This document shows, one piece after another, positions 3,024 through 18,244 of a DNA stretch of 64,000 bases. Position 1 is the stretch's first letter; every line of letters starts with the position of its first letter. Source of the DNA: Phycisphaerae bacterium. Lineage in GTDB: Bacteria > Planctomycetota > Phycisphaerae > UBA1845 > Fen-1342. The DNA lies in assembly GCA_963675745.2 (NCBI GenBank), contig CAXXWX010000026.1, positions 160,001 through 224,000 on the forward strand, read 5' to 3'. The position numbers were made by a program, and so were the translations under genes. The notes under the pieces were generated by a model. The model was given only the letters and a program-made list of their open reading frames with translations. It had not been told where the DNA came from and searched no databases.

Positions 3024-3179
3024 CTTGTTCTCTCCACGAAGGTCAACCATCGATCCGCGATCAGTGTGCAATAGCAGTGCCTTAATGCGACCTCTTGAAC
3101 GAGCGGCCCGCGCTGTGTCGAAGCGGCCATGCCGCGCGGCGCATCTCTGAAGATCCTTTGATCGGTTGCATGCCCATCC

Positions 3180-4947
3180 CTAGCAGGCCGCGCTGGGCGT
3201 AAACCTGCTCGATCCGGGCGCGATGTAATCCTCGGCGGCGGTTGACAGGAACTTCGACGCGCGCTCGCTGATGATTCGCGAGACGATCTGCTCGTTTGCG
3301 TCGTTTGCCTTGGCGGCAACCAGGCTGCGAATGGAGAACACGTTGACAGGAACTTCGACGCGCGCTCGCTGATGATTCGCGAGACGATCTGCTCGTTTGC
3401 GTCGTTTGCCTTGGCGGCAACCAGGCTGCGAATGGAGAACACACGTAGCGCGTCAGATACCGACCTTCGGCCGAGTCCTTGCGACCGGTGAACGGGTAGG
3501 TATCCGGACCCCGCTGGCACTGGCTGTTGATGTTGACGCGGCAGACCTGGTTGACCAGCACGTCAACCAACCGGCTCAGGCGTGTCGCGTCCGCTCCGAA
3601 CAGTGCCGCCTGTTGCCCGTATGGGCAGGCGATTATCCAGTCGATCACCGTTTGTTCATCGTCATACGGAACGATCGGCACGACCGGGCCAAACTGTTCA
3701 AGCTGGCAGACCCGCATCTCGGGCGTACAAGGATAAAGAACGGCCGGGTAGTAGAGCGTCTGGTCGATCGTTCCGCCGCCGGCGTTGATCACCTGCGCTC
3801 CGCCCGCCACCGCCTCGTCCACTATCTCTTTCAGCCACTGCGGCTTGCCGGCCTCGGGCAGTGGGGTGATATTCACACCCTCTTCCCATGGCATGCCAAC
3901 GGTCAAGCCCTCGACCTGCGCGCTCACCCGCTTGCAGAAGTCGTCGGCAACGCTGCGGTGGCAGAAGATGATCTTGATCGCCGTACACCGTTGTCCGTTA
4001 TACGAGAACGCGCCGAGCACGCACTCGCGCGCGGCCAGGTCGAGATCGGCGTCCGGCAAGACCACCGCCGGATTCTTGGCGTCCAACCCCAGCACGCAGC
4101 GCAGCCGATTCAACTTCGGGTGCTGATGCTTCAGAATGCTCGCCACTTTCGCCGACCCGATGAAGGCCAGAACGTCGATCCGCCCGCTTTTCATGAGCGG
4201 CCCAACCACCACCGACCCATCACCATAGACGGTGTTCACAACCCCCGGCGGGAACGACTCCGCAAACGCCTGGAGCAACGGCGCGTGCAGGAGCACGCCA
4301 TACTTCGGCGGTTTGAAAATCACGGTATTGCCCATGATCAGCGCGGGGATCAACGTGGTGAACGTCTCGTTGAGCGGGTAATTGTACGGCCCCATGCACA
4401 GGACCACGCCGAGGGGACTACGTCGGATCTGGGCCAGGAAGCCCGGTTCCAGGGCAAAGCGCGAGCTGATCCGATCCAGCTCCTTCAATGCCTCGACGGT
4501 GGCCCGTACGTAATCCACGGTTCGGTCGAATTCCTTGCGGGCGTCCGGCAACGTCTTGCCGATTTCCCACATCAGAATACGAACCACGCGGTCGCGCGCG
4601 AGCTGCATCCGCGGGATAAAGGCCTCGACGCGACGGATTCGATCCGCAACCGCCATCGTTGGCCATTCGCCGCAGCCCTTGCCAAAGGCGTCGCACGCGG
4701 CCTCCAGCGCGTGCAGAGACTCCACTTCGGTCATGAGAGGATAGCCCCCCAGGGCAACTTGAGCCGGACCCTCCGCGCCACGCAGGCATACCGGCGATAG
4801 CACCTCTCGCTTTGGGCCGGCCCACGGGAGCACCTGGCCGTTCAACAGATAGTGATGGCCTTCCCGCGATCGTTCGAACCTGGCCTGCTCCGGGATGGCA
4901 TCTGGAGCCGGAAAGACATCTGATGGCGCTTTCACCTGGGTGGGCAT
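3180..4947 (-). CDS. aldehyde dehydrogenase, NADP-dependent non-phosphorylating GAPDH (GapN-like); 3' end frameshifted and duplicated (pseudogene or assembly error)
   Basis: ALDH motifs PYNYP, FIGS, GLDAKN, catalytic NGQRCTA, EQFGP and PFTGRKDSAEG. The expected C-terminus SVSDALRVFSIRSLVAAK... lies in another frame after about 3463. Start at ATG 4947 with GGAGG RBS; the end coordinate is uncertain. Confidence 0.8.
3241..3442. repeat. 101-bp direct tandem duplication (2 copies) in the ALDH 3' end
   Basis: 3241-3341 and 3342-3442 read identically (gttgacaggaacttcgacgcgcg...atggagaacac). Confidence 0.95.
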
Positions 4948-5683
4948 GACCGCCTCCGATCTGGCACGCTGCCACTGGCAACGGCCGTCATTATTGCCCA
5001 ATTCAGGCGATTGTGCAGGTCACGCCATGAGTCTTTTGCACGCGGCGGTCAAGCGCCGCGCGTGGTCGGCCACGGACGGTGAGGAGCGAGGGACAGGAAA
5101 GCACTGGCGGTCAGCAGCCAGACCACCGCCAGGACGTCAATCGTGCGGGTTATCGAATTCATCGCCATCTCCTTGCGGTCTGTACGGCCAGGTCACCAGC
5201 GGGCCGGCCCCACTGATGCCGGCCCCGGAGACCAATGCTCGGTCTCACAAGAGAGTTCGAACAAGATAGCGGATTCAGCCCCCCGAAAGGGAAAATTCTT
5301 CTACGTGCCCACGCGAGACTTCGTCCGGCTCCCATGGGGATCCGAACTGACGCATTCAGCATACCCAAGCCGTGTTCACAGCCGAAGCACCACAAGCTGG
5401 CTGATCAGTACGCCCTCCGCGATGTTATCCCTGTCGAGCTTGTCGCATCGCCGCGCCGTCGTAGACATACCGCTGGGCGATGAAGTCGCGGCTCTGGTTG
5501 CCCGAGGCCGCGACGAACTCGTCAGCCCGCCGGCAACTTAACGATGTGCGCACTCCAGGCCGCGGGGTTGCTCAAGATTTGCTGGCGACGCCTTACCCAT
5601 CTCAGTACGATGGAGGGGCGTGGAGTGCCGAGTCCCGCCCCACTTCTCGGCCGTGTGATCGGTGCTCCAAATGGGAGAGCAAC

Positions 5684-8600
5684 GTGAATCTAATCCGGCT
5701 GCGGCATCCCCCATCAAGCGTGACCCGCATGCTGGTAACCCACCTCATCGTGATGCTGGTCTTGATCGCGGGGTGTCCACGTGTTTCGACGCCGACTGCA
5801 CCCGTTGCGCCGTCAGACCCCGCCACGACCGGTAACGATCAGAACACCGGCCCCGCGCCGACGACACCGGCGGACGAAACCCCGTCGCACCCCGCTCCGA
5901 ACGAAGGTGATCTGAGCCCAGGCGCGGAACCGACTGATACTGATCCCAACAACCCGGCCGTAGCGGACACGCAGCCGGGGTGTATTGTCTGTCACGCCCT
6001 TGCACAAGGAGACCGTCGCGCCGTGGCTACACTGTCCGGGGCGAGTGCACACCTCGGGACTGTGACCGACGCGATCTGCCAGAACTGCCACGAGATGACC
6101 AGGCATCGCAGTGGCGTCATTCGACTGTGGGGAAGTGTCGCGGTTAAATCCGTGGTTCTCTCCATCTCGAACGACGCCGATGCGCCAACCGATCTGACGG
6201 CATTCTGTGGCAATTGCCACGCGAATACTGGTGACTTCCGGCATCCCAGCGACGGGCGAATAACCTGCAATTCCTGCCACGATGTGCATGCACCCTTGCG
6301 GGGTAATCTGGCGCTGATCCGCCAATCGGTCCTCAACCCGACCGGCCGGGGCACGACCAAGGTGGTGTTCACGGCGCGCAGCGGCGTTGGCAGCTTTGAT
6401 GACGGCGACCCGGCGGCCAACGACGGCGTCTGCCAGGTGTGTCACACCGGCACGGTGTTCCACCGCTACGACGGCTCCGGCATCGCGCACTTCGCCGGCG
6501 CGGATTGCGCGAGTTGCCACTCGCATGCCGACGGCTTCATCTCCGGGGCCGGCTCGTGCATCGCCTGCCACAGCACGCCGCAAGGCACCCGCCTGGCGGT
6601 GGTGGCCGCGGACGGCGGTGGCGGGCACCATCTCGACGAAGCCGTGCTCAGCGACGACGACTGCCTGGTCTGCCACGACACGAGCGCGCACCAGGAAGGC
6701 GTCGTGCGCGTCTGGTCCGACCCGACCAATCCGACGGCGGCGTTGCCGCTGACCGGTGAGGCGGCAGAGCTGGTCTCGTTCTGCGACGCCTGCCACAGCG
6801 CGCTGACGCATCCGACGATCCACACGGTGGGCGCGGACTGGGAGCCGGTCTGCACGGAGTGTCACGAGCTTCACGATCCGCAGAACGCCAACCTGGCGCT
6901 GGTGCGTGACGTGATCCACAATCAGACGCTGAGCGCCGACCGGCCGGTGGTATTCACGGCGCGCACGGGTGGCGGCAGCTTTGATGACGGCGACCCGGCG
7001 GCCAACGACGGCGTCTGCCAGGTGTGTCACACCGGCACGGTGTTCCACCGTTACGACGGCTCCGGCATCGCGCACTTCGCCGGCGCGGACTGCGCGAGCT
7101 GCCATGCGCATGCCGACGGCTTCATCTCCGCCGCCGGCTCGTGCATCGCCTGCCACAGCACGCCGCAAGGCACCCGCCTGGCGGTGGTGGCCGCGGACGG
7201 CGGTGGCGGGCACCATCTCGACGAAGCCGTGCTCAGCGACGACGACTGCCTGGTCTGCCACGACACGAGCGCGCACCAGGAAGGCGTCGTGCGCGTCTGG
7301 TCCGACCCGACCAATCCGACGGCGGCGTTGCCGCTGACTGGTGATTCGGCGGAGCTGGTCCCGTTCTGCGACGCCTGCCACAGCGCGCTGACGCATCCGA
7401 CGATCCACACGGTGGGCGCGGACTGGGAGCCGGTCTGCACGGAGTGTCACGAGCTTCACGATCCGCAGAACGCCAACCTGGCGCTGGTGCGTGACGTGAT
7501 CCACAATCAGACGCTGAGCGCCGACCGGCCGGTGGTGTTCACGGCGCGCACGGGCACCGGCAGCTTCGATGACGGCGACCCGGCGGCCAACGACGGCGTC
7601 TGCCAGGTGTGTCACACCGGCACGGTGTTCCACCGCTACGACGGCTCCGGCATCGCGCACTTCGCCGGCGCGGACTGCGCGAGCTGCCATGCGCATGCCG
7701 ACGGCTTCATCTCCGCCGCCGGCTCGTGCATCGCCTGCCACAGCACGCCGCAAGGCACCCGCCTGGCGGTGGTGGCCGCGGACGGCTCCGGCGGGCACCA
7801 TCTCGACGAAGCCGTGCTCAGCGACGACGACTGCCTGGTCTGCCACGACACGAGCGCGCACCAGGAAGGCATCGTGCGCGTCTGGTCCGACCCGACCAAT
7901 CCGACGGCGGCGTTGCCGCTGACCGGTGAGGCGGCAGAGCTGGTCTCGTTCTGCGACGCCTGCCACAGCGCGCTGACGCATCCGACGATCCACACGGTGG
8001 GCGCGGACTGGGAGCCGGTCTGCACGGAGTGTCACGAGCTTCACGATCCGCAGAACGCCAACCTGGCGCTGGTGCGTGACGTGATCCACAATCAGACGCT
8101 GAGCGCCGACCGGCCGGTGGTGTTCACGGCGCGCACGGGCACCGGCAGCTTCGATGACGGCGACCCGGCGGCCAACGACGGCGTCTGCCAGGTGTGTCAC
8201 ACCGGCACGGTGTTCCACCGCTACGACGGCTCCGGCATCGCGCACTTCGCCGGCGCGGACTGCGCGAGCTGCCATGCGCATGCCGACGGCTTCATCTCCG
8301 CCGCCGGCTCGTGCATCGCCTGCCACAGCACGCCGCAAGGCACCCGCCTGGCGGTGGTGGCCGCGGACGGCTCCGGCGGGCACCATCTCGACGAAGCCGT
8401 GCTCAGCGACGACGACTGCCTGGTCTGCCACGACACGAGCGCGCACCAGGAAGGCATCGTGCGCGTCTGGTCCGACCCGACCAATCCGACGGCGGCGTTG
8501 CCGCTGACCGGTGAGGCGGCAGAGCTGGTCTCGTTCTGCGACGCCTGCCACAGCGCGCTGACGCATCCGACGATCCACACGGTGGGCGCGGACTGGGAGC

Positions 8601-10879
8601 CGGTCTGCACGGAGTGTCACGAGCTACACGATCCGCAGAACGCCAACCTGGCGCTGGTGCGTGACGTGATCCGCAATCAGACGCTGAGTACCGACCGGCC
8701 GGTGGTGTTCACGGCGCGCAGCGGCGTTGGCAGCTTTGATGACGGCGACCCGACGGCCAACGACGGCGTCTGCCAGGTGTGTCACACCGGCACGGTGTTC
8801 CACCGTTACGACGGCTCCGGCATCGCGCACTTCGCCGGCGCGGACTGCGCGAGCTGCCATGCGCATGCCGACGGCTTCATCTCCGCCGCCGGCTCGTGCA
8901 TCGCCTGCCACAGCACGCCGCAAGGCACCCGCCTGGCGGTGGTGGCCGCGGACGGCGGTGGCGGGCACCATCTCGACGAAGCCGTGCTCAGCGACGACGA
9001 CTGCCTGGTCTGCCACGACACCAGCGCGCACCAGGAAGGCGTCGTGCGCGTCTGGTCCGACCCGACCAATCCGACGGCGGCGTTGCCGCTGACCGGTGAG
9101 GCGGCGGAACTGGTCCCGTTCTGCGACGCCTGCCACAGCGCGCTGACGCATCCGACGATCCACACGGTGGGCGCGGACTGGGAGCCGGTCTGCACGGAGT
9201 GTCACGAGCTTCACGATCCGCAGAACGCCAACCTGGCGCTGGTGCGTGACGTGATCCACAATCAGACGCTGAGTACCGACCGGCCGGTGGTGTTCACGGC
9301 GCGCACGGGCACCGGCAGCTTCGATGACGGCGACCCGACGGCCAACGACGGCGTCTGCCAGGTGTGTCACACCGACACGGTGTTCCACGTTTACGATGGC
9401 TCCGGGTCGGCGCACTTCGACGGCCAGGACTGTACGAGCTGCCACTCGCACCAGACGCACTTCTTGCTGTCCTTGAGTTCGTGCAGGGACTGCCACACGA
9501 CGATGCAGGACGATGGCGACGGCGTACCGCCGGACGGGCGGCGCGCGGTGCTGGCGGACTTTGCCCGCGCGAGCCACCACGTCTCGGCGAGCATTGCGGA
9601 CGAAGACTGCCTTGTGTGTCACGAGATGTCCCGGCACGGTCGGGGGCATGTGCGGTTGATTGACCCCGACGACGGAGTGACGGTGTATGTTCACGACCAG
9701 CTTGACGCGGATGAATTGACGCCGTTCTGCCTGCATTGCCATGACGCGAACGGCGCCACCGCCGGCAACTGGAATCAACCATTCAGCGACGGCGCGACGG
9801 TCCCGGACATCGATCAGTCAGGACGCTGGGCCACGTCGGCGCACGCGACCGGCGGAACAACGAATCCCGGGCAAGGCTGCACCGACTGCCACGGCAACGG
9901 CCACGGCTCCAATCTTCGCCACCTGCTACTGCCCGCGGACGGCTCACCAGGCACGGATAATACAAACGAGGAAGAGGGATTCTGCCTGGCGTGCCACTCA
10001 ACCGGCGTAGTCGTGAACGAAGCCGTCTCGAACGGCTGGTTCGGCGGGGTGTACGCGGACTTCACAAACGACATCGCCGCGACGCTCGGCCAGCATGCAT
10101 CACACCCGGTTGTCGATTCCGCGGATGGGCACGTCTTCGACCTGGGGCTGGGGCCGCAGGAGCTTGAGTGCACCTCTTGCCACAGCGTGCACCAGGACTC
10201 CGGCAAATACTGGGCGGCACCCAACGGGAAGACGCCGGTAACGCGCTGGGGGAGTGGCGAACTCTGGGGCGACGACGCGGGCGAAAAGGTCGGGCAGTTT
10301 GATCCGACTGGGATTTACCAGGCGCCGGCGATCGGTGAAGCGGGTTCCAACCTCTCCGGCGACCCGCTTCCGATCGGATTCGATGACGAGTCGCTGCTCA
10401 CCGCGGATGTGCTTCCGGATTACAACGCGTTCTGCCTGACCTGCCATCAGCACGCGTTCAACGGGCTCTTGGCGATCGACTGGGCGAGTGAAAAGCACGG
10501 CGCGGCCGCCGCTGAACCCGACGGACCGGCCGGTGCTGAGCTGGCAGCGCCATATGATTCGGCGGAGCGGGGCCACTATTTCCTGGCGTGCGTTGACTGT
10601 CACGAAACGCACGGCAGCGAGAACAACTGGCTGCTGAGGCGATCCGCGAATGGAGATGTCGTGTCCACGCTGTTAGCGCCGGACACAACGAACAACTGGG
10701 GTGACTTGTGTGGCAGGTGCCACCTAACCAGCCTGCTGAACACCCACCACAATAGTGACGTCTGGCGTAACAAGCTCGGCATGCCTCCGGGCAGCCCGGA
10801 TTGCCAGCGCTGCCACGAACCCGTACCCGAGGTGAGCTGCATGACGTCCGGATGCCACAACCACAACGAGTTCTTCTGA
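5684..10879 (+). CDS. giant multiheme c-type cytochrome lipoprotein (46 CxxCH + 1 CX4CH), about 1730 aa
   Basis: GTG 5684 follows GGGAGAG (alternative start ATG 5729). Hydrophobic signal ends in lipobox LIAGC, followed by a Pro/Thr/Asp linker. Heme motifs: 4 N-terminal, 5x6 in repeats, 12 C-terminal and a terminal CMTSGCH. Confidence 0.92.
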   Translation: MNLIRLRHPPSSVTRMLVTHLIVMLVLIAGCPRVSTPTAPVAPSDPATTGNDQNTGPAPTTPADETPSHPAPNEGDLSPGAEPTDTDPNNPAVADTQPGCIVCHALAQGDRRAVATLSGASAHLGTVTDAICQNCHEMTRHRSGVIRLWGSVAVKSVVLSISNDADAPTDLTAFCGNCHANTGDFRHPSDGRITCNSCHDVHAPLRGNLALIRQSVLNPTGRGTTKVVFTARSGVGSFDDGDPAANDGVCQVCHTGTVFHRYDGSGIAHFAGADCASCHSHADGFISGAGSCIACHSTPQGTRLAVVAADGGGGHHLDEAVLSDDDCLVCHDTSAHQEGVVRVWSDPTNPTAALPLTGEAAELVSFCDACHSALTHPTIHTVGADWEPVCTECHELHDPQNANLALVRDVIHNQTLSADRPVVFTARTGGGSFDDGDPAANDGVCQVCHTGTVFHRYDGSGIAHFAGADCASCHAHADGFISAAGSCIACHSTPQGTRLAVVAADGGGGHHLDEAVLSDDDCLVCHDTSAHQEGVVRVWSDPTNPTAALPLTGDSAELVPFCDACHSALTHPTIHTVGADWEPVCTECHELHDPQNANLALVRDVIHNQTLSADRPVVFTARTGTGSFDDGDPAANDGVCQVCHTGTVFHRYDGSGIAHFAGADCASCHAHADGFISAAGSCIACHSTPQGTRLAVVAADGSGGHHLDEAVLSDDDCLVCHDTSAHQEGIVRVWSDPTNPTAALPLTGEAAELVSFCDACHSALTHPTIHTVGADWEPVCTECHELHDPQNANLALVRDVIHNQTLSADRPVVFTARTGTGSFDDGDPAANDGVCQVCHTGTVFHRYDGSGIAHFAGADCASCHAHADGFISAAGSCIACHSTPQGTRLAVVAADGSGGHHLDEAVLSDDDCLVCHDTSAHQEGIVRVWSDPTNPTAALPLTGEAAELVSFCDACHSALTHPTIHTVGADWEPVCTECHELHDPQNANLALVRDVIRNQTLSTDRPVVFTARSGVGSFDDGDPTANDGVCQVCHTGTVFHRYDGSGIAHFAGADCASCHAHADGFISAAGSCIACHSTPQGTRLAVVAADGGGGHHLDEAVLSDDDCLVCHDTSAHQEGVVRVWSDPTNPTAALPLTGEAAELVPFCDACHSALTHPTIHTVGADWEPVCTECHELHDPQNANLALVRDVIHNQTLSTDRPVVFTARTGTGSFDDGDPTANDGVCQVCHTDTVFHVYDGSGSAHFDGQDCTSCHSHQTHFLLSLSSCRDCHTTMQDDGDGVPPDGRRAVLADFARASHHVSASIADEDCLVCHEMSRHGRGHVRLIDPDDGVTVYVHDQLDADELTPFCLHCHDANGATAGNWNQPFSDGATVPDIDQSGRWATSAHATGGTTNPGQGCTDCHGNGHGSNLRHLLLPADGSPGTDNTNEEEGFCLACHSTGVVVNEAVSNGWFGGVYADFTNDIAATLGQHASHPVVDSADGHVFDLGLGPQELECTSCHSVHQDSGKYWAAPNGKTPVTRWGSGELWGDDAGEKVGQFDPTGIYQAPAIGEAGSNLSGDPLPIGFDDESLLTADVLPDYNAFCLTCHQHAFNGLLAIDWASEKHGAAAAEPDGPAGAELAAPYDSAERGHYFLACVDCHETHGSENNWLLRRSANGDVVSTLLAPDTTNNWGDLCGRCHLTSLLNTHHNSDVWRNKLGMPPGSPDCQRCHEPVPEVSCMTSGCHNHNEFF
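6361..9450 (+). repeat. 585-bp (195-aa, hexaheme) tandem repeat, 5 full copies plus a partial sixth
   Basis: Copies start at 6361, 6946, 7531, 8116, 8701 and 9286 (ggtggtgttcacggcgcgca). The ORF-track shadow ORFs recur every 585 bp. Confidence 0.97.
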
Positions 10880-11360: not shown

Positions 11361-14300
11361 CTAACGCCGATACGCGGCCCGGCGGCTGCGCCTCCGGTTA
11401 TGTCGCTTCAAGCCAACCAGCCCAAACAACACAAAGATCGGCATGATACCCAGCATGCCGCAGGCGTTAATCGGCGTGACGGTCTCAACAATGGTCAAGT
11501 CAACATCATCGACGTCGACCTCGGCCATGGTTTGGGCGGCGTTCGGTGTGGGTGTTTCCTCACAGGTGGTGCTTGCGTTCACAGTGACTTTGCCGGACAC
11601 GAGCAGTCTGAGCACCAGTTCGATCTGAACATCCTCGTCCGGGATGACGTCGCCGAGCTCGATCGTAATCTGGCCATCTTCAACATAAGCGTTGAGCGGC
11701 ATCGCCTGCGCCGCCTGTCCGGCGATCCACCACGCGGAGACGAATTCCGTATTCTCCGGCAGCGGGATTGTCAGCAGGACGTCAGTGGCAGTGCCGTTGC
11801 CGACATTCTCGACCGAGGCACCAAATGTCACTTCATCGCCGACGTAGGCATCTTCGGCGGGCGCGTCAATCCGTACGCGGAGGTCGGGTGCGGGATTGAC
11901 TGGCGGTGGTGTCTCCTCGACCGAGGTTGTGAACACAACGTCGTCGCCATACACCGTACCGGCGCTGTTGGTGGCGTAGGCGGCGACGTAGTAGGTCGTG
12001 TTTGGGTCCAGGCCGGTGATGTTACTGGCAAATACGCCGGTGCCGGTGCCATCCGTGGTCTTGTCGTCGTCGATGGTCGGATTGGTGAACGTGCTCCAGC
12101 ACACGCCACGCGTTGTGACCGCGTCACCGCCGTCGGCGGTAACATTGCCACCGGCATCGGCGGTCGTCGTGGTAATGTTGGAGATCACGGTCGTCGTTAC
12201 CGTCGGCGCGGCGTCCGCCGTGAACGACACTTGGCTACCATAGCTGGTACCGATGGCGTTCGTGGCATACGCCCGGACATAGTATGTCGTGCCGGCGGTC
12301 AGCCCTGTGATGGTGCTGGTGAACTCGCCGGTACCCGTGCCGTCAGTAGTCTTGCTGTCAGCGGTGGTCGGACTTTCCGACATGCTCCAGCACACACCGC
12401 GGACGCTGACATCGGCTCCGCCGTCATCAGCCACGGCGCCCCCCGATCGTGCAGATGTAATCGTGATGTCCGACACCGCGGCGGTTGTCACGGTCGCGAC
12501 CGTGGTGAGAGCGGCCGTGGTGAGGCTGACCTCATCACCATACGCCGTTCCCGCGGCGTTGGTCGCGTAGGCTCGGACGTAGTAAGTCGTGCCGGCGGTC
12601 AGGTCCGGTGATACTGCTCGTGAACTCTCCGGTGCCCGTACCGTCGGTCGTCTTGCTGTCAGCCGTGGTCGGGTTCTCCGACGTGCTCCAGCAAACACCA
12701 CGCGCTGTCACCGCATCGCCACCGTCGTCTGTGACATTACCGCCCGAGTCAGCGGCTGTCTCAGTGATGTTGGAGACCGCCGTCGTCGTCACCGTCGGCG
12801 CACTGTCAGCCGTGAACGAGACTTGGCTGCCGTAGCTGGTGCCGACGGCGTTCGTGGCGTACGCCCGGACATAGTACGTCGTCCCGGCGGTCAGGCCGGT
12901 GATACTGCTCGTGAACTCACCGGTTCCCGTACCGTCGGTCGTCTTGCTGTCGGCGGTCGTCGGACTCTCCGACGTGCTCCAGCAAACGCCACGCGCTGTC
13001 ACCGCGTCGCCGCCTTCGTCGTCACGTTGCCACCCGAGTCGGCGGTGGCATCGGCGACGTTGGATACGGCTGTGGTAGTTACGGTCGGCAGCGAATCTGC
13101 CGTAAACGACACTTGGCTGCCGTAGCTGGTGCCGACGGCGTTCGTCGCGTAAGCCCGAACGTAGTAAGTCGTCCCGGCGGTCAGCCCGATGATACTGCTC
13201 GTGAACTCGCCGGTTCCCGTACCGTCGGTCGTCTTGCTGTCAGCGGTCGTCGGGCTCTCCGACGTGCTCCAGCAAACGCCACGCGCCGTGACCGCGTCGC
13301 CGCCATCGTCGGTGATGTTGCCGCCCGAGTCGGCGGCTGTCTCGGTAATGTTCGAGATCGCCGTCGTCGTCACGGTCGGCGCACTGTCGGACGTAAACGA
13401 GACCTGGCTGCCGTAGCTCGTGCCGACAGCGTTGGTCGCGTAGGCCCGAACGTAGTAAGTCGTCCCGGCGGTCAGCCCGGTGATGCTGCTGGTGAACTCG
13501 CCGGTTCCCGTGCCGTCGGTCGTCTTGCTGTCGACGGTGGTCGGACTCTCCGACGTACTCCAGCAAACGCCGCGCGCTGTAACCGTGTCGCCACCTTCGT
13601 CCGTCACGTTGCCACCCGAGTCGGCGGTGGTATCGGCGACGTTGGATACGGCTGTGGTAGTTACGGTCGGCAGCGAATCTGCCGTAAACGAGACTTGGCT
13701 GCCGTAGCTGGTGCCGACGGCATTGGTCGCGTAGGCTCGGACGTGGTAAGTCGTGCCCGCGGTTAGGTCGGTGATACTGCTGGTGAACTCACCGGTTCGC
13801 CATCGGTCGTCTTGCTGTCGGCGATCGTCGGGCTCTCTGACGTGCCAGTGACGGCATCGCCGCCGTCGTCCGTGACGTTGGTCACGTCACCGTCGGTGCC
13901 GAATCCGCCGTGAATGAGACTTGGCTGCCATAGCTCGTGCCGACGGCGTTCGTGGCGTACGCCCGGACATAGTACGTCGTGCCGGCGGCTCAGGCCGGTG
14001 ATACTGCTCGTGAACTCGCCGGTCCCCGTGCCATCGGTCGTCTTGCTGTCGGCGGTGGTCGGGCTCTCTGACGTGCTCCAGCACACACCACGTGCCGTAA
14101 CCGCGTCGCCGCCATCGTCGTCACGTTGCCACCCGAGTCGGCCGTCGTCTCTGTGATGTTCGAGATCGCCGTCGTCGTCACCGTCGGTGCGCACTGTCCG
14201 CCGTGAACGAGACCTGGCTGCCGTAGCTCGTACCGACGGCGTTCGTGGCGTACGCCCGAACATAGTACGTCGTGCCGGCCGTCAGACCCGTGATGCTGCT

Positions 14301-17300
14301 CGTGAACACGCCGGTACCCGTGCCGTCGGTCGTCTTGCTGTCGGCGGTGGTCGGACTCTCCGACGTGCTCCAGCAAACGCCACGCGCCGTGACCGCGTCG
14401 CCACCATCGTCCGTCACGTTACCACCCGAATCAGCCGTCGTTTCGGTGATGTTCGTGATCGCGGTGGTGGTCACCGTCGGCGCCGAATCCGCCGTGAACG
14501 AGACCTGGCTGCCGTAGCTCGTACCGACGGCGTTCGTGGCGTACGCCCGAACATAGTACGTCGTGCCGGCCGTCAGACCCGTGATGCTGCTCGTGAACTC
14601 GCCGGTACCCGTGCCGTCGGTCGTCTTGCTGTCGGCGGTGGTCGGACTCTCCGACGTGCTCCAGCAAACGCCGCGCGCCGTGACCGTGTCGCCACCATCG
14701 TCGGTAACGTTACCACCCGAATCAGCCGTCGTTTCGGTGATGTTCGTGATCGCGGTGGTGGTCACCGTCGGCGCCGAATCCGCCGTGAATGAGACTTGGC
14801 TGCCATAGCTCGTACCGACGGCGTTCGTGGCGTACGCCCGAACATAGTACGTCGTGCCGGCCGTCAGACCCGTGATGCTGCTCGTGAACTCACCGGTTCC
14901 CGTGCCATCGGTCGTCTTGCTGTCGGCGGTGGTCGGACTCTCCGACGTGCTCCAGCAAACGCCACGCGCCGTGACCGTATCGCCGCCATCGTCGGTAACG
15001 TTACCACCCGAATCAGCCGTCGTTTCGGTGATGTTCGTGATCGCGGTGGTGGTCACCGTCGGCGCCGAATCCGCCGTGAATGAGACTTGGCTGCCATAGC
15101 TCGTGCCGACGGCGTTCGTCGCATAAGCCCGAACGTAATAAGTCGTCCCTGCGGATAGTCCAGTGATACTGCTCGTGAACTCACCGGTTCCCGTACCGTC
15201 GGTCGTCTTGCTGTCGGCGGTGGTCGGGCTCTCTGACGTGCTCCAGCAAACGCCGCGCGCCGTGACCGCATCGCCACCGTCATCCGTCACATTCCCGCCC
15301 GAGTCGGCCGTCGTCGCTGTGATGTTCGAGACGGCTGTGGTGGTCACGGTTGGCAGCGCGCTGACTGTCACATCGCGCGTATCTGTGATTTGCACCGCCG
15401 GATCACCCGCCATACCGCCGTATTCCACCACATATCCATCAAGGATGGGATCGTCGGGCAGATCGTTCCACTTTCCACCGCCGGAGGAATAAATCTCGGC
15501 GCAGTGCTCATTGCCGCCGCTGTTGTTGGGCTCCCCTGGATTCCAATTGGCAAACTGGCCGCCGACCGGCGTGCTGCCGTTCGAGAATTGCGTCCCGGCC
15601 TCGGGGCCGGTCACCCACTTCCAGACGCCCTCCACGGTTTCATCACTGCCGCCAATCCACGCGTCCGCGGCCAACTTCAGCGTAATGAAGTCGTTCTCTT
15701 CCTGCGAGGTGATGGTGGCAAGATAGCCCTGCATGCCGAACAAGGCGCTGGCGGCCGCGGCGTCCCGGGCGTCGCTCCAAGTGATCTCGTCGCTGGCGGC
15801 GTACTCGTAGAAGTGCGTGGTGCTGCCCAGTGGAATCGCCCCGCCCGCGGTGAAGGCGATCGTGCGCGTGGCCCGGCTGGCCGAGGTCGAGCTGAATGTG
15901 ACCGTGCGCAACAAGGTCTGCCAATCAGCGGCGCTGGCGGTTCCGCTGAATGAGAGGATGCCGGTGGTACCGCTGTACGACGCCGTGACGCCGCCCGGCA
16001 GCGCTCCGGTGTACGCGAGCACGTCATCCGTGTCGAAGTTGGTGGTGATGCTGACCATGAAGTCGGTGATGTCGCTGGCGACGATCTCGAGGTCGGGATC
16101 CACCGCAGCAGCGTCCCCGCCAATGAAGTAGTCCGCCGAGCCACCAGATGCTGTCACGGAGATGCCGGTAGTGAACTCGATCTCGCTGCCGTAAGCAGTG
16201 CCGACGCTGCTGGTGGCGTATGCGCGAACATAGTACGTCGTGCCGGCCGCCAGTCCGGTGATGCTGCTGGTGAACTCGCCGGTGCCGGTGCCGTCAGTCG
16301 TCTTGTCATCGCCAATGGTCGGATTGGTCGATGTGCTCCAGCACACGCCCCGAGCGCTGACGGTCTCGCCGCCGTCGTCGGTGACATTACCGCCCGAGGT
16401 AGCTGTTGTGGTGGTGATCTCCGTCACGGCGGCCGTGGTGACCGTCGGGACGGCGTTGGTCGTGAACGACACCTGGCTGCCGTAGCTCGTACCGACGCTG
16501 TTGGTGGCATAGGCCCGTACGTAGTAGGTCGTGCCCGTGGTCAGGCCGGTGATGCTGCTGGTGAACTCGCCGGTGCCCGTGCCATCGGTCGTCTTGCTGT
16601 CAGCAGTGGTCGGGCTCTCTGATGTGCTCCAGCACACGCCACGGGCCGTAACCGTGTCACCGCCGTCGGCAACGACGTCACCGCCGCCCGTAGCTGAGGT
16701 AGCGGCGATGTTACTGATGGCGGCGGTGTCCACGGTCGGAGCCTGGATGATCTCGCCCCCGTACACGGTGCAGAAGATCTCCCCGCCCTGCTCGTACACT
16801 GCGACGATATCGCCATACCGGTTGTTCAGCCCCAAACTGAGATAGTTGGCGCTGGCGATGGTGACGGCGTCGTCAAACGACGCGCCATTGTCAGTGCTGA
16901 TGGCGTATTTGACGCTGGCGCCGTCCACGTACCCGTCGATCACGTTGGAAAACGCGTCGACGGCCAACGTGCGTCCCTGACTGATCGAAGTGGTGCCAAA
17001 GGTCAGCGCCGTTTGCGAGTAGTCCGATACATCGATGCGCAGCGCGTCGCTGCCGCTGCCGCATGTGTAGAGGAAGACTCCGCCGTCGGTGGACGCCAAA
17101 ACGGTGGTGGAATACATGATCGAACCACCGGGTGTGTATGGCCCACTAAACGTGGCTCCATGGTCGGTGCTCTTGAAGACGTAGACTGTCGGGTCATCAG
17201 TCTGAACGTAGACGTCGCCCGTATCGGGATCAACGTGTACGTCGGCATACATACGCCAATCGTCCACCGTGGTCGTGCTGAACGCCCCAGAGCCGTTGCT

Positions 17301-17780
17301 GCCGTTGCGGAAGAGGGTCGCCCCATCCCTGGTTATGATGTACACATATGGGGAATCCACGGCCATGTGGACGGTGCTGGAGGCGGCCCCAAGGCTGCTC
17401 GGCGCGCTGAACGACACGCCGTTATCCGTGCTGCGTGAGAAGGTCGCCTGACCACCCTCGACCCAGGCGACGTGTACAACGCCGTCAGCGTCGACGGCAA
17501 TCTCGGCTTCCGCCGACGACGCATTGACCTGCACCGGAGCCTGGAAGCTCTCGCCGCGATTGGTGCTCCGCGCCACCCAGATGCCGCTGGGGTTGCGGTA
17601 CAGGACATAGATGGTCCCGTCCGGTGCCATCGCGACATTGCGACTCGTGTTCGGATATGCGATGCTGTTGGACGTTCCACTATCGGAAACCGGCACGTCG
17701 GCATAGAGCACTTCGGCCTGAGCCGTTGCCGCCAGCTCCAGGGCAACCAGGACCGCCCCCACCAGGTGTCGTGAAGTCAC
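11361..17780 (-). CDS. large surface/adhesin-like protein: BNR beta-propeller, about 14 FN3-like repeats, C-type lectin domain, DUF11-like domain, C-terminal CG-TM-basic anchor; split by several frameshifts
   Basis: Track ORFs 14178-18110, 13763-14263, 12999-13607, 12535-13002 and 11361-12701 are pieces of one repeat array. Start GTG 17780 follows GGAG, with a signal ending ATAQA. Asp-boxes (STNRGESF, STDNGVSF, STDHGATF), lectin motifs (WIGG, EPNN, WND) and a tail CGMLGIMPIFVLFGLVGLKRHNRRRSRR. Confidence 0.8.
11930..16745 (-). repeat. 291-bp (97-aa) FN3-like repeats: 2 copies at about 16170-16745, then about 12 copies at about 11930-15356
   Basis: Unit PTVTTTA...GGNVTDDGG..VTARGVCWSTSESPT...GLTAGTTYYVRAYATNAVGTSYGSQVSFT. 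Shadow ORFs at 14272, 14563 and 14854 are spaced 291 bp. Confidence 0.92.
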
Positions 17781-18244
17781 TGTCTGTCTCCTTGGTCCAC
17801 AAGTTTGCTCGGCTCGAGTGTCCCTGCTGTGCCATGCCGCAAGCAGCAGGCGCGGCCAGTCCATGAAACAGGATGTTGCCAGAGAGTCCCGCCGCTTAGA
17901 GTGGCCGGTGCGGACAACACAAGTTCGAGCCGCCACAGCCCGTGCAGTGGCAAGAGCCGGACTGTCCCACCGGGCGCCGATCGCACTTCCGCCCTGACGG
18001 CAGCCGTCCTTCGCGTTTCCGCGGTCAGGATCTCTAGTGTCAGATCGGTACCGCAGGCCGGTGCAAAAAGTTGGAGGATTCAACGCGCTGGTTGGAGCAT
18101 CCAGGGGCAAGGTGGCCGGCCGGCTTTCGCAGGCCTAACCAGAAACACGGGGGAAGCATCTGCATGCCTGTGCCGCCGCCCATCAGGGTCTGGTTCAATG
18201 CGTCAACGTCACCTGTCGTGGCAGCAAACGCCCCGCCTGAGATG

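Follow-up and report, generated by a model that had tools for sequence, protein, structure and literature searches.

A predicted lipid-anchored 47-heme cytochrome built from tandem hexaheme modules: a candidate length-variable electron conduit in a Phycisphaerae bacterium

Cytochromes that repeat small heme modules within a single chain include the GSU1996 dodecaheme, a c7 polymer, and HmcA, while cytochromes of the MtrC/OmcA type alternate PF22113 heme domains with disulfide-bearing beta domains. HmcA, with 16 hemes, has been termed the largest solved chain, and according to the same preprint no structure has been solved for a multiheme chain of more than 16 hemes (10.1101/2025.05.29.656830). 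Modular grafting of cytochromes is treated as an established idea in the available parts of two sources (10.1101/2025.05.29.656830; PMC9250108). Why some cytochromes repeat modules in-chain and others polymerise is an open question in the accessible part of a report on giant multihemes (PMC11492766). Giant multiheme genes with 53, 69, 112 and 113 motifs are known, and long-range transfer or storage is the function proposed for them in the consulted sections of their descriptions (PMC11492766, PMC11495043). Because motif counts of up to 113 have been published, 47 hemes are not exceptional alone. The gene described here differs from these giants in that one can define the unit that repeats, the ligands belonging to it, a shorter orthologue and expansions that arose independently; the available portions of the giants' descriptions contain no such unit. 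In literature searches at the level of article text, we found no description of the hexaheme module, its copy-number variation or the Phycisphaerae gene cluster discussed below.

The window, by which we mean the whole 64,000-nt stretch of Phycisphaerae DNA analysed, contains a 1731-aa open reading frame at 5684-10879 (+) with a GTG start. Its product carries 46 CxxCH motifs and one CX4CH (aa 1719-1725), compared with a mean of 0.38 and a maximum of 4 CxxCH in 2000 shuffles of the same residues; it has no CxxCK motif over its 1731 aa, and its heme density is 34.7 aa per heme. The only cysteine outside the heme motifs is Cys31, which lies within LIAGC after a hydrophobic stretch, agrees with the lipobox consensus used to call it the lipidation site, and is followed by a linker with 16 Pro, 11 Thr, 9 Ala and 7 Asp among its 68 residues. 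In 12 chosen homologue N-termini, a cysteine likewise sits between a hydrophobic stretch and a low-complexity linker. The encoded protein is likely a membrane-anchored lipoprotein c-type cytochrome, and its motif excess, an export signal recognised by inspection and the maturation genes of the genome would place it among the multiheme c-type cytochromes.

This layout (Table 1) largely follows the original prediction, which had named a LIAGC lipobox, a Pro/Thr/Asp linker, 46 CxxCH plus one CX4CH in about 1730 aa, and thirty hemes in five 195-aa units. The cysteine and its linker are as described, the motif counts hold exactly, and the units are borne out by a 585-nt periodicity at 6524-9448. 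That prediction had also taken both flanks for degenerate copies of the unit, with about seven modules in total, and here it stands in part. A module HMM recognises six full modules and one half: the N-terminal flank is one full diverged module and the C-terminal flank starts with a half module, giving 6.5 modules in total, whereas the last eight hemes, 40-47, belong to a domain distinct from the hexaheme module.

Table 1. Features of the 47-heme gene (window positions) and of a barrel-cytochrome cluster elsewhere in the genome.
Feature	Position	Strand	Basis
Shine-Dalgarno-like GGGAG (putative function)	5673..5677	+	sequence, 6 nt ahead of GTG
Lipoprotein signal peptide: basic n-region, hydrophobic h-region, lipobox IAG-C31	5684..5776	+	inspection
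68-aa Pro/Thr/Ala/Asp-rich linker, predicted flexible tether	5777..5980	+	composition
Module 0: diverged N-terminal hexaheme module, hemes 1-6	5981..6523	+	49-52% identity to units 1-5
Hexaheme unit 1, hemes 7-12	6524..7108	+	repeat comparison
Hexaheme unit 2, hemes 13-18	7109..7693	+	repeat comparison
Hexaheme unit 3, hemes 19-24	7694..8278	+	repeat comparison
Hexaheme unit 4, hemes 25-30	8279..8863	+	repeat comparison
Hexaheme unit 5, hemes 31-36	8864..9448	+	3' end diverges from other units
Half module, hemes 37-39	9449..9757	+	module HMM positions 4-90 against aa 1265-1358, 57 bits
C-terminal cap, hemes 40-47, ends CX4CHxH	9758..10879	+	common to P0013, L015, P0127
OmcE-headed undecaheme, NHL propeller, candidate large beta-barrel, 4-heme, NHL+8-heme and 8-heme lipoprotein genes	G000:C3:22420-31572 (L042)		

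The five units, each exactly 195 aa or 585 nt long, repeat the heme spacing 35-40-23-55-25-17, share 93-98% protein identity and differ pairwise at 9-31 of 585 nt. They are acidic (26 D/E vs 6 K/R per unit), and the reading frame is unbroken across 5.2 kb. One stretch of 679 nt is identical between adjacent units. Each unit carries its own variant pattern, and the variants are distributed among the five in a patchwork, as would be expected from unequal crossing-over or conversion between units.

Local assembly errors near the gene meant that the reality of the array needed testing. Within 3 kb of the gene, the assembly contains an exact duplication of 101 nt (3241-3442) and is 7 nt short at 3463, neither of which the Logan contigs support, and broken FN3-repeat genes lie downstream; together with the 679-nt identical run these features could suggest that assembly inflated the array and that the true gene is shorter. 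We therefore turned to the Logan contigs of two runs (X1, X2) of one sample, probably the source sample. In both runs the unit is collapsed into a contig that rejoins its own start, and these separately assembled contigs confirm the tandem array. The depth of the repeat contig in X1 was 37.5 against flanks of 9.57 and 8.82, and in X2 16.7 against about 4.4-4.5, for repeat/flank ratios of 3.9-4.5 and 3.4-3.8, respectively; a 31-mer multiplicity of 3.92 would be expected with five units, against 3.0-3.3 with four and 4.5-4.9 with six. Since Logan contig depth is not itself a copy number and the runs may come from the source sample, these ratios weakly favour five units as the best value and allow four to six. 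With a self-joining contig at about four times flank depth in both runs, near the 3.92 expected, a separate variant pattern in each unit and an intact frame over 5.2 kb, an array length produced by assembly is scarcely credible. The count may still be off by one unit in either direction (41-53 hemes), which would leave our reading of the gene unchanged.

We next consider the module family. With residues 280-680 as the query, 60 of the 8000 candidates scored proved to be homologous proteins, and a one-unit search of 1.84 billion representatives returned 22 at E<=1e-30 and 139 at E<=1e-10. Named homologues belong to Phycisphaerae or Planctomycetota, and the 18 best of 24 related loci from named genomes are all Planctomycetota or a subgroup of it. 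Occurrence is sporadic, the module being present in 3 of 60 related genomes and in 0 of 3 within the genus. Close relatives are built in one of two ways, as lipoproteins carrying 2-4 modules or as fusions to an NHL beta-propeller carrying from half a module up to at least five; in both, one of several caps follows. Among 235 module-matching proteins (strict threshold; some entered twice, once as protein and once as locus), 195 have no full module, 21 have one, 8 have two and 8 have three, while four, five and six full modules occur in one protein each. That length varies with module number, as had been proposed, is thus seen in the module HMM and the tree, where relatives carry one to six full modules.

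The closest cluster, that of P0013, has four full-length members, each with 22 CxxCH and a CX4CH, two modules and 23 hemes. P0013 and its three cluster mates have an N-terminus of like kind, a 60% identical cap and the terminal CX4CH, and 46 minus 4x6 gives 22, their CxxCH count. A Phycisphaerae orthologue with the same ends and two modules suggests that the 47-heme gene likely gained four by duplication; its module number likely grew from two to six through recent tandem duplication. A quick tree built from 68 modules unites units 1-5 in a clade (support 100) and the five modules of L018 in another (91); the module pairs of P0005 and P0006 have their own clades (97 and 99), and module 0 groups with first modules of other lipoproteins (88, on a long branch). 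Because these clades are separate, expansion likely occurred several times.

The 23-heme lipoprotein might instead be the functional form, with the four extra modules a recent neutral expansion in a strain or population. The small differences between units and their patchwork variants fit such an origin, as do the two modules in 4 of 4 full-length members of the closest cluster and the rarity of four or more full modules (3 of the 235 matches at the strict threshold). Older, diverged arrays nevertheless persist elsewhere: P0003 has four modules that are 49-53% identical, L018 five (70-92%) and P0064 five longer ones (59-77%). Such arrays, with identities of 49-92%, also indicate that long arrays are not all assembly products. 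Within units 1-5 of the 47-heme gene itself, none of the 30 CxxCH or of the seven conserved His has been lost, though the time for decay has been short. On balance we consider a purely neutral expansion quite unlikely. The NHL-fused cytochrome of L018 (L018:4260-9647) ends at a contig edge and so has a minimum of 43 CxxCH and of 5.7 modules; it may be longer than the 47-heme protein.

Next, we examined the heme ligands. Each unit has ten non-motif His (nine in unit 4, from the unit translations), and Met is absent between aa 139 and 1273, in agreement with the earlier count of about ten such His per six hemes and no Met. Six non-motif His are invariant in all 35 aligned modules (5 from the 47-heme protein and 30 from other proteins), and a seventh is present in 34. 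A distant alignment of 483 distinct domain rows, with 221-340 covering each position, retains His190 in 100%, His29 in 94%, His178 in 93%, His50 in 88% and His169 in 79%, and has 77% His plus 11% Met at position 111; a His111-to-Met swap is the substitution expected at an axial ligand. The all-bis-His ligation put forward from the His count and lack of Met fits this pattern and gains support from both the conservation and the swap. With six ligands for six hemes, a cassette could presumably be added with no heme left unsatisfied.

The seventh His, at module position 94 in PTIHT, is strong in close modules and weaker in distant ones (57% of rows); candidate roles are a second-shell residue, proton coupling or an extra metal site. 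Its presence in 34 of 35 modules, together with the 23 non-motif His of the cap (counted with 11 hemes) and the atypical CX4CH, would fit a redox enzyme or a metal- or heme-binding scaffold, with the heme chain feeding an active site in the cap or at the extra His. We find this very unlikely, given that CxxCK is lacking, that no catalytic family scores above its cut-off, that ligands are in surplus rather than missing, and that His94 fades in distant relatives. The catalytic multihemes considered (NrfA, OTR, HAO, MccA) gave no family match.

Consistent with the original prediction, family-model, structure-sequence and fold searches gave no full-length match to a characterised family. A fold search of solved structures found no clear match, its weak best heme-protein hit being MtrA, and the predicted apo three-module model had a pTM of 0.39. 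The best solved-structure match of a family profile was 6r2q_A of the Mtr complex (E 2e-15; 7e-9 with another profile), a chain that we take to be MtrA. The protein resembles MtrA/DmsE in its predicted bis-His chain type and CxxCHxxH-like spacing, and differs from these cytochromes of about ten hemes in having 47 hemes, a lipid anchor and a repeated module. Its TIGR03508 score is 80.1 bits against a cut-off of 192.2, no MtrB/PioB gene lies among the scanned neighbours, and PF11854, the MtrB/PioB porin, was not found in the 91%-complete genome, so that neither the family nor an MtrA-type locus applies.

With GSU1996 and HmcA the protein shares the use of one polypeptide of repeated heme modules, and a family profile matches 3ov0/3ouq, presumably GSU1996, at E 2e-6 to 6e-6. 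The unit here, however, is a 195-aa hexaheme without a fold match to c7: the period of six hemes per 195 aa, the lack of a TIGR04257 match and an E of only 0.026 for solved c7 argue against a c7 polymer, and the PF14522 score of the protein arises from summed short motif matches. MtrC/OmcA cytochromes are excluded by the lack of a PF22113 match and of spare Cys for disulfides in the 47-heme protein; PF22113 is matched by some homologues. OmcE and OmcS are comparable as predicted linear stacks of bis-His hemes, but they polymerise subunits of 4-6 hemes, whereas here length is encoded in one chain. A 1731-aa lipoprotein is not a small secreted nanowire subunit, and a two-unit query gave no OmcE/OmcS match at E<=1; family profiles that include the homologues' flanking domains touch 9yuq and 7tfs weakly.

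We turn next to the C-terminal cap. Over aa 1263-1731 the protein is 60% identical to P0013, 53% to L015 and 49% to P0127, with the CX4CH kept. The cap is homologous to the OmcE-headed undecaheme encoded in the barrel cluster on C3: its family profile aligns with the C-terminal part of that cytochrome (hhalign probability 99.6, E 2e-23), and the two sequences match weakly when compared directly (E 0.002). The N-terminal domain of the undecaheme matches 7tfs (E 2e-29), which we take to be G. sulfurreducens OmcE, and 9yuq (E 5e-24). The latter is D. soudanensis OmcE, from a paper on OmcE gene clusters with beta-barrels and beta-propellers that names five phyla and in whose main text the string 'Planctomycet' is absent (PMC13712944). 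A 14-heme ORF at L015:9574-11610 has the same cap, no evident signal peptide and recombinase-like genes nearby, and is possibly a truncated or moved copy.

The 792-aa ORF of the C3 cluster ranks 1 of 1032 long ORFs for amphipathic-strand density by our own heuristic, making it a candidate large beta-barrel, and of 60 related genomes 45 contain a match to it. The cluster has a syntenic counterpart in G028. By its genes, it looks like an OmcE/Uet-type outer-membrane conduit. The Uet cluster of Tenderiales, in the accessible part of its description, comprises an undecaheme UetJ, a tetraheme UetA, a barrel UetC and the NHL proteins UetH/I (10.1101/2022.05.06.490989). In gene content the C3 cluster resembles this set, while the 47-heme gene differs from the Uet genes in lying outside the cluster and in encoding a lipoprotein with a module array. 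Homology of the cap profile to the C3 undecaheme links the gene to OmcE/Uet-type clusters, although by location it stands alone. An NHL-fused relative does lie in such a cluster, in G013, where a 25-heme NHL-fused module protein accompanies a paralogue of the 792-aa ORF, NHL genes and an undecaheme, and a divergent 5-heme gene is found at 7 of 8 NHL-type loci. Lipoprotein-type module genes, on the other hand, stand alone at six examined loci and most barrel-bearing relatives lack the hexaheme module, which is evidence against direct partnership. From the conservation of the barrel cluster, extracellular electron transfer would seem common in an uncultured Phycisphaerae group.

Its immediate neighbourhood in the window consists of a divergent aldehyde dehydrogenase gene and of convergent small and FN3-repeat genes. 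Among 8 neighbouring ORFs scanned over 1-25 kb (the 47-heme ORF included) there is no porin, quinol oxidase or maturation gene, as had been noted from the sequence. The 3' end of the aldehyde dehydrogenase gene, at window 3082-5001 (-), is mis-assembled. Window 11361-18110 (-) holds one or more genes for large exported proteins that combine FN3-like repeats, encoded in tandem 291-nt units, with a C-type lectin domain and DUF11; the FN3-repeat gene(s) are split into several frames around 12089-14260, possibly through assembly error.

Elsewhere in the genome, the proposed search for cytochrome c maturation genes yielded CcsA (C26:778366-780273, above the Pfam cut-off) and an adjoining CcsB-like gene that matches 7s9y weakly (E 5e-5) and is missed by PF05140; CcmE was not found in the genome. 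The same region (G000:C26:778366-794127, L041) also encodes an octaheme lipoprotein of the tetrathionate-reductase family, an NHL 20-heme cytochrome and two cytochrome b561+multiheme membrane proteins, the last presumably CbcL-like. At G000:C6:156948-161632, a gene for an NrfD-family membrane protein fused to a 6-heme domain precedes that of a 23-heme cytochrome. Of the porin-cytochrome and NrfD/CymA-type genes suggested as search targets, the genome thus has an NrfD gene with hemes (C6) and a candidate barrel cluster (C3), and no MtrB-family porin was found.

Taken together, we favour a lipid-tethered, polar, length-variable electron conduit, a reading we hold to be somewhat likelier right than wrong. 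After Sec export, the protein would be lipidated at Cys31 and held on its flexible 68-aa tether, with its hemes attached by the System II CcsA/CcsB-like pair on C26, whose genes are present and whose use here seems plausible. The modules are predicted to stack head to tail as one continuous bis-His heme chain, in which the distal His 29, 50, 111, 169, 178 and 190 of each module would make the hemes six-coordinate and non-catalytic. If straight, the 47-heme chain would be ~36 nm long and that of the 23-heme orthologue ~18 nm, as calculated from 7.7 A/heme in the OmcE filament geometry. Membrane b/c or NrfD-type quinol-reacting cytochromes encoded elsewhere may supply electrons, which could leave via the far cap to an undecaheme/OmcE-like/beta-barrel conduit or directly to an outside acceptor, after a passage of tens of nanometres across the cell envelope or past it. 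The length would change through unequal crossing-over or conversion among the 585-nt units, a mechanism that would keep frame and ligand balance.

Alternatively, the protein could be a membrane-tethered electron store, or capacitor, in which modules add capacity rather than reach, the chain may coil, and oxic/anoxic spells are buffered. The ligand pattern and heme density fit a store equally, the gene lacks a dedicated partner, the genome encodes both an oxidase and anaerobic-type cytochromes, and storage is among the roles given to giant multihemes in the available text of their reports (PMC11492766, PMC11495043). Yet the layout is fixed, running from the anchor through the diverged first module and the array to the conserved cap, and it implies two unlike ends that storage does not need. 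The cap is homologous to a barrel-cluster cytochrome, and expression would probably raise capacity more cheaply than gene length. We regard a store as unlikely, though a serious alternative, and the two readings are not mutually exclusive.

A more specific form of the favoured conduit, which we put forward tentatively and with some doubt, is an accordion nanowire. Its reach would be tuned in ~4.6 nm steps by gain or loss of the self-ligating six-heme cassette, and in Phycisphaerae it would act as a plug-in extension of a widespread but overlooked OmcE/undecaheme/beta-barrel conduit; it might span a wide periplasm or extend outward from the cell surface. Lipoproteins face the periplasm by default, and an enlarged planctomycete periplasm is mentioned in the accessible literature. 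If true, such a nanowire would be a covalent alternative to polymerising nanowires, and the natural 2-, 3-, 4- and 6-module versions would form a ready-made length series. Because natural orthologues have the same ends and different module numbers, conduction, capacity and reach could be measured against length, and a stackable hexaheme cassette with its own ligands could become a building block for defined-length protein wires.

More distant module relatives carry a T9SS-A-like tail (22.2 bits against a cut-off of 23) or Ig/cadherin and PKD domains, export or adhesion domains that hint at surface use. A module copy in P0065 has lost several CxxCH and ligand His to substitution, which fits a decaying pseudogene or an error-rich sequence. 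P0064, P0066, P0068 and P0072 form a separate clade with ~220-aa modules in 1-5 copies and a common FlgD/T9SS-A-like C-terminal tail.
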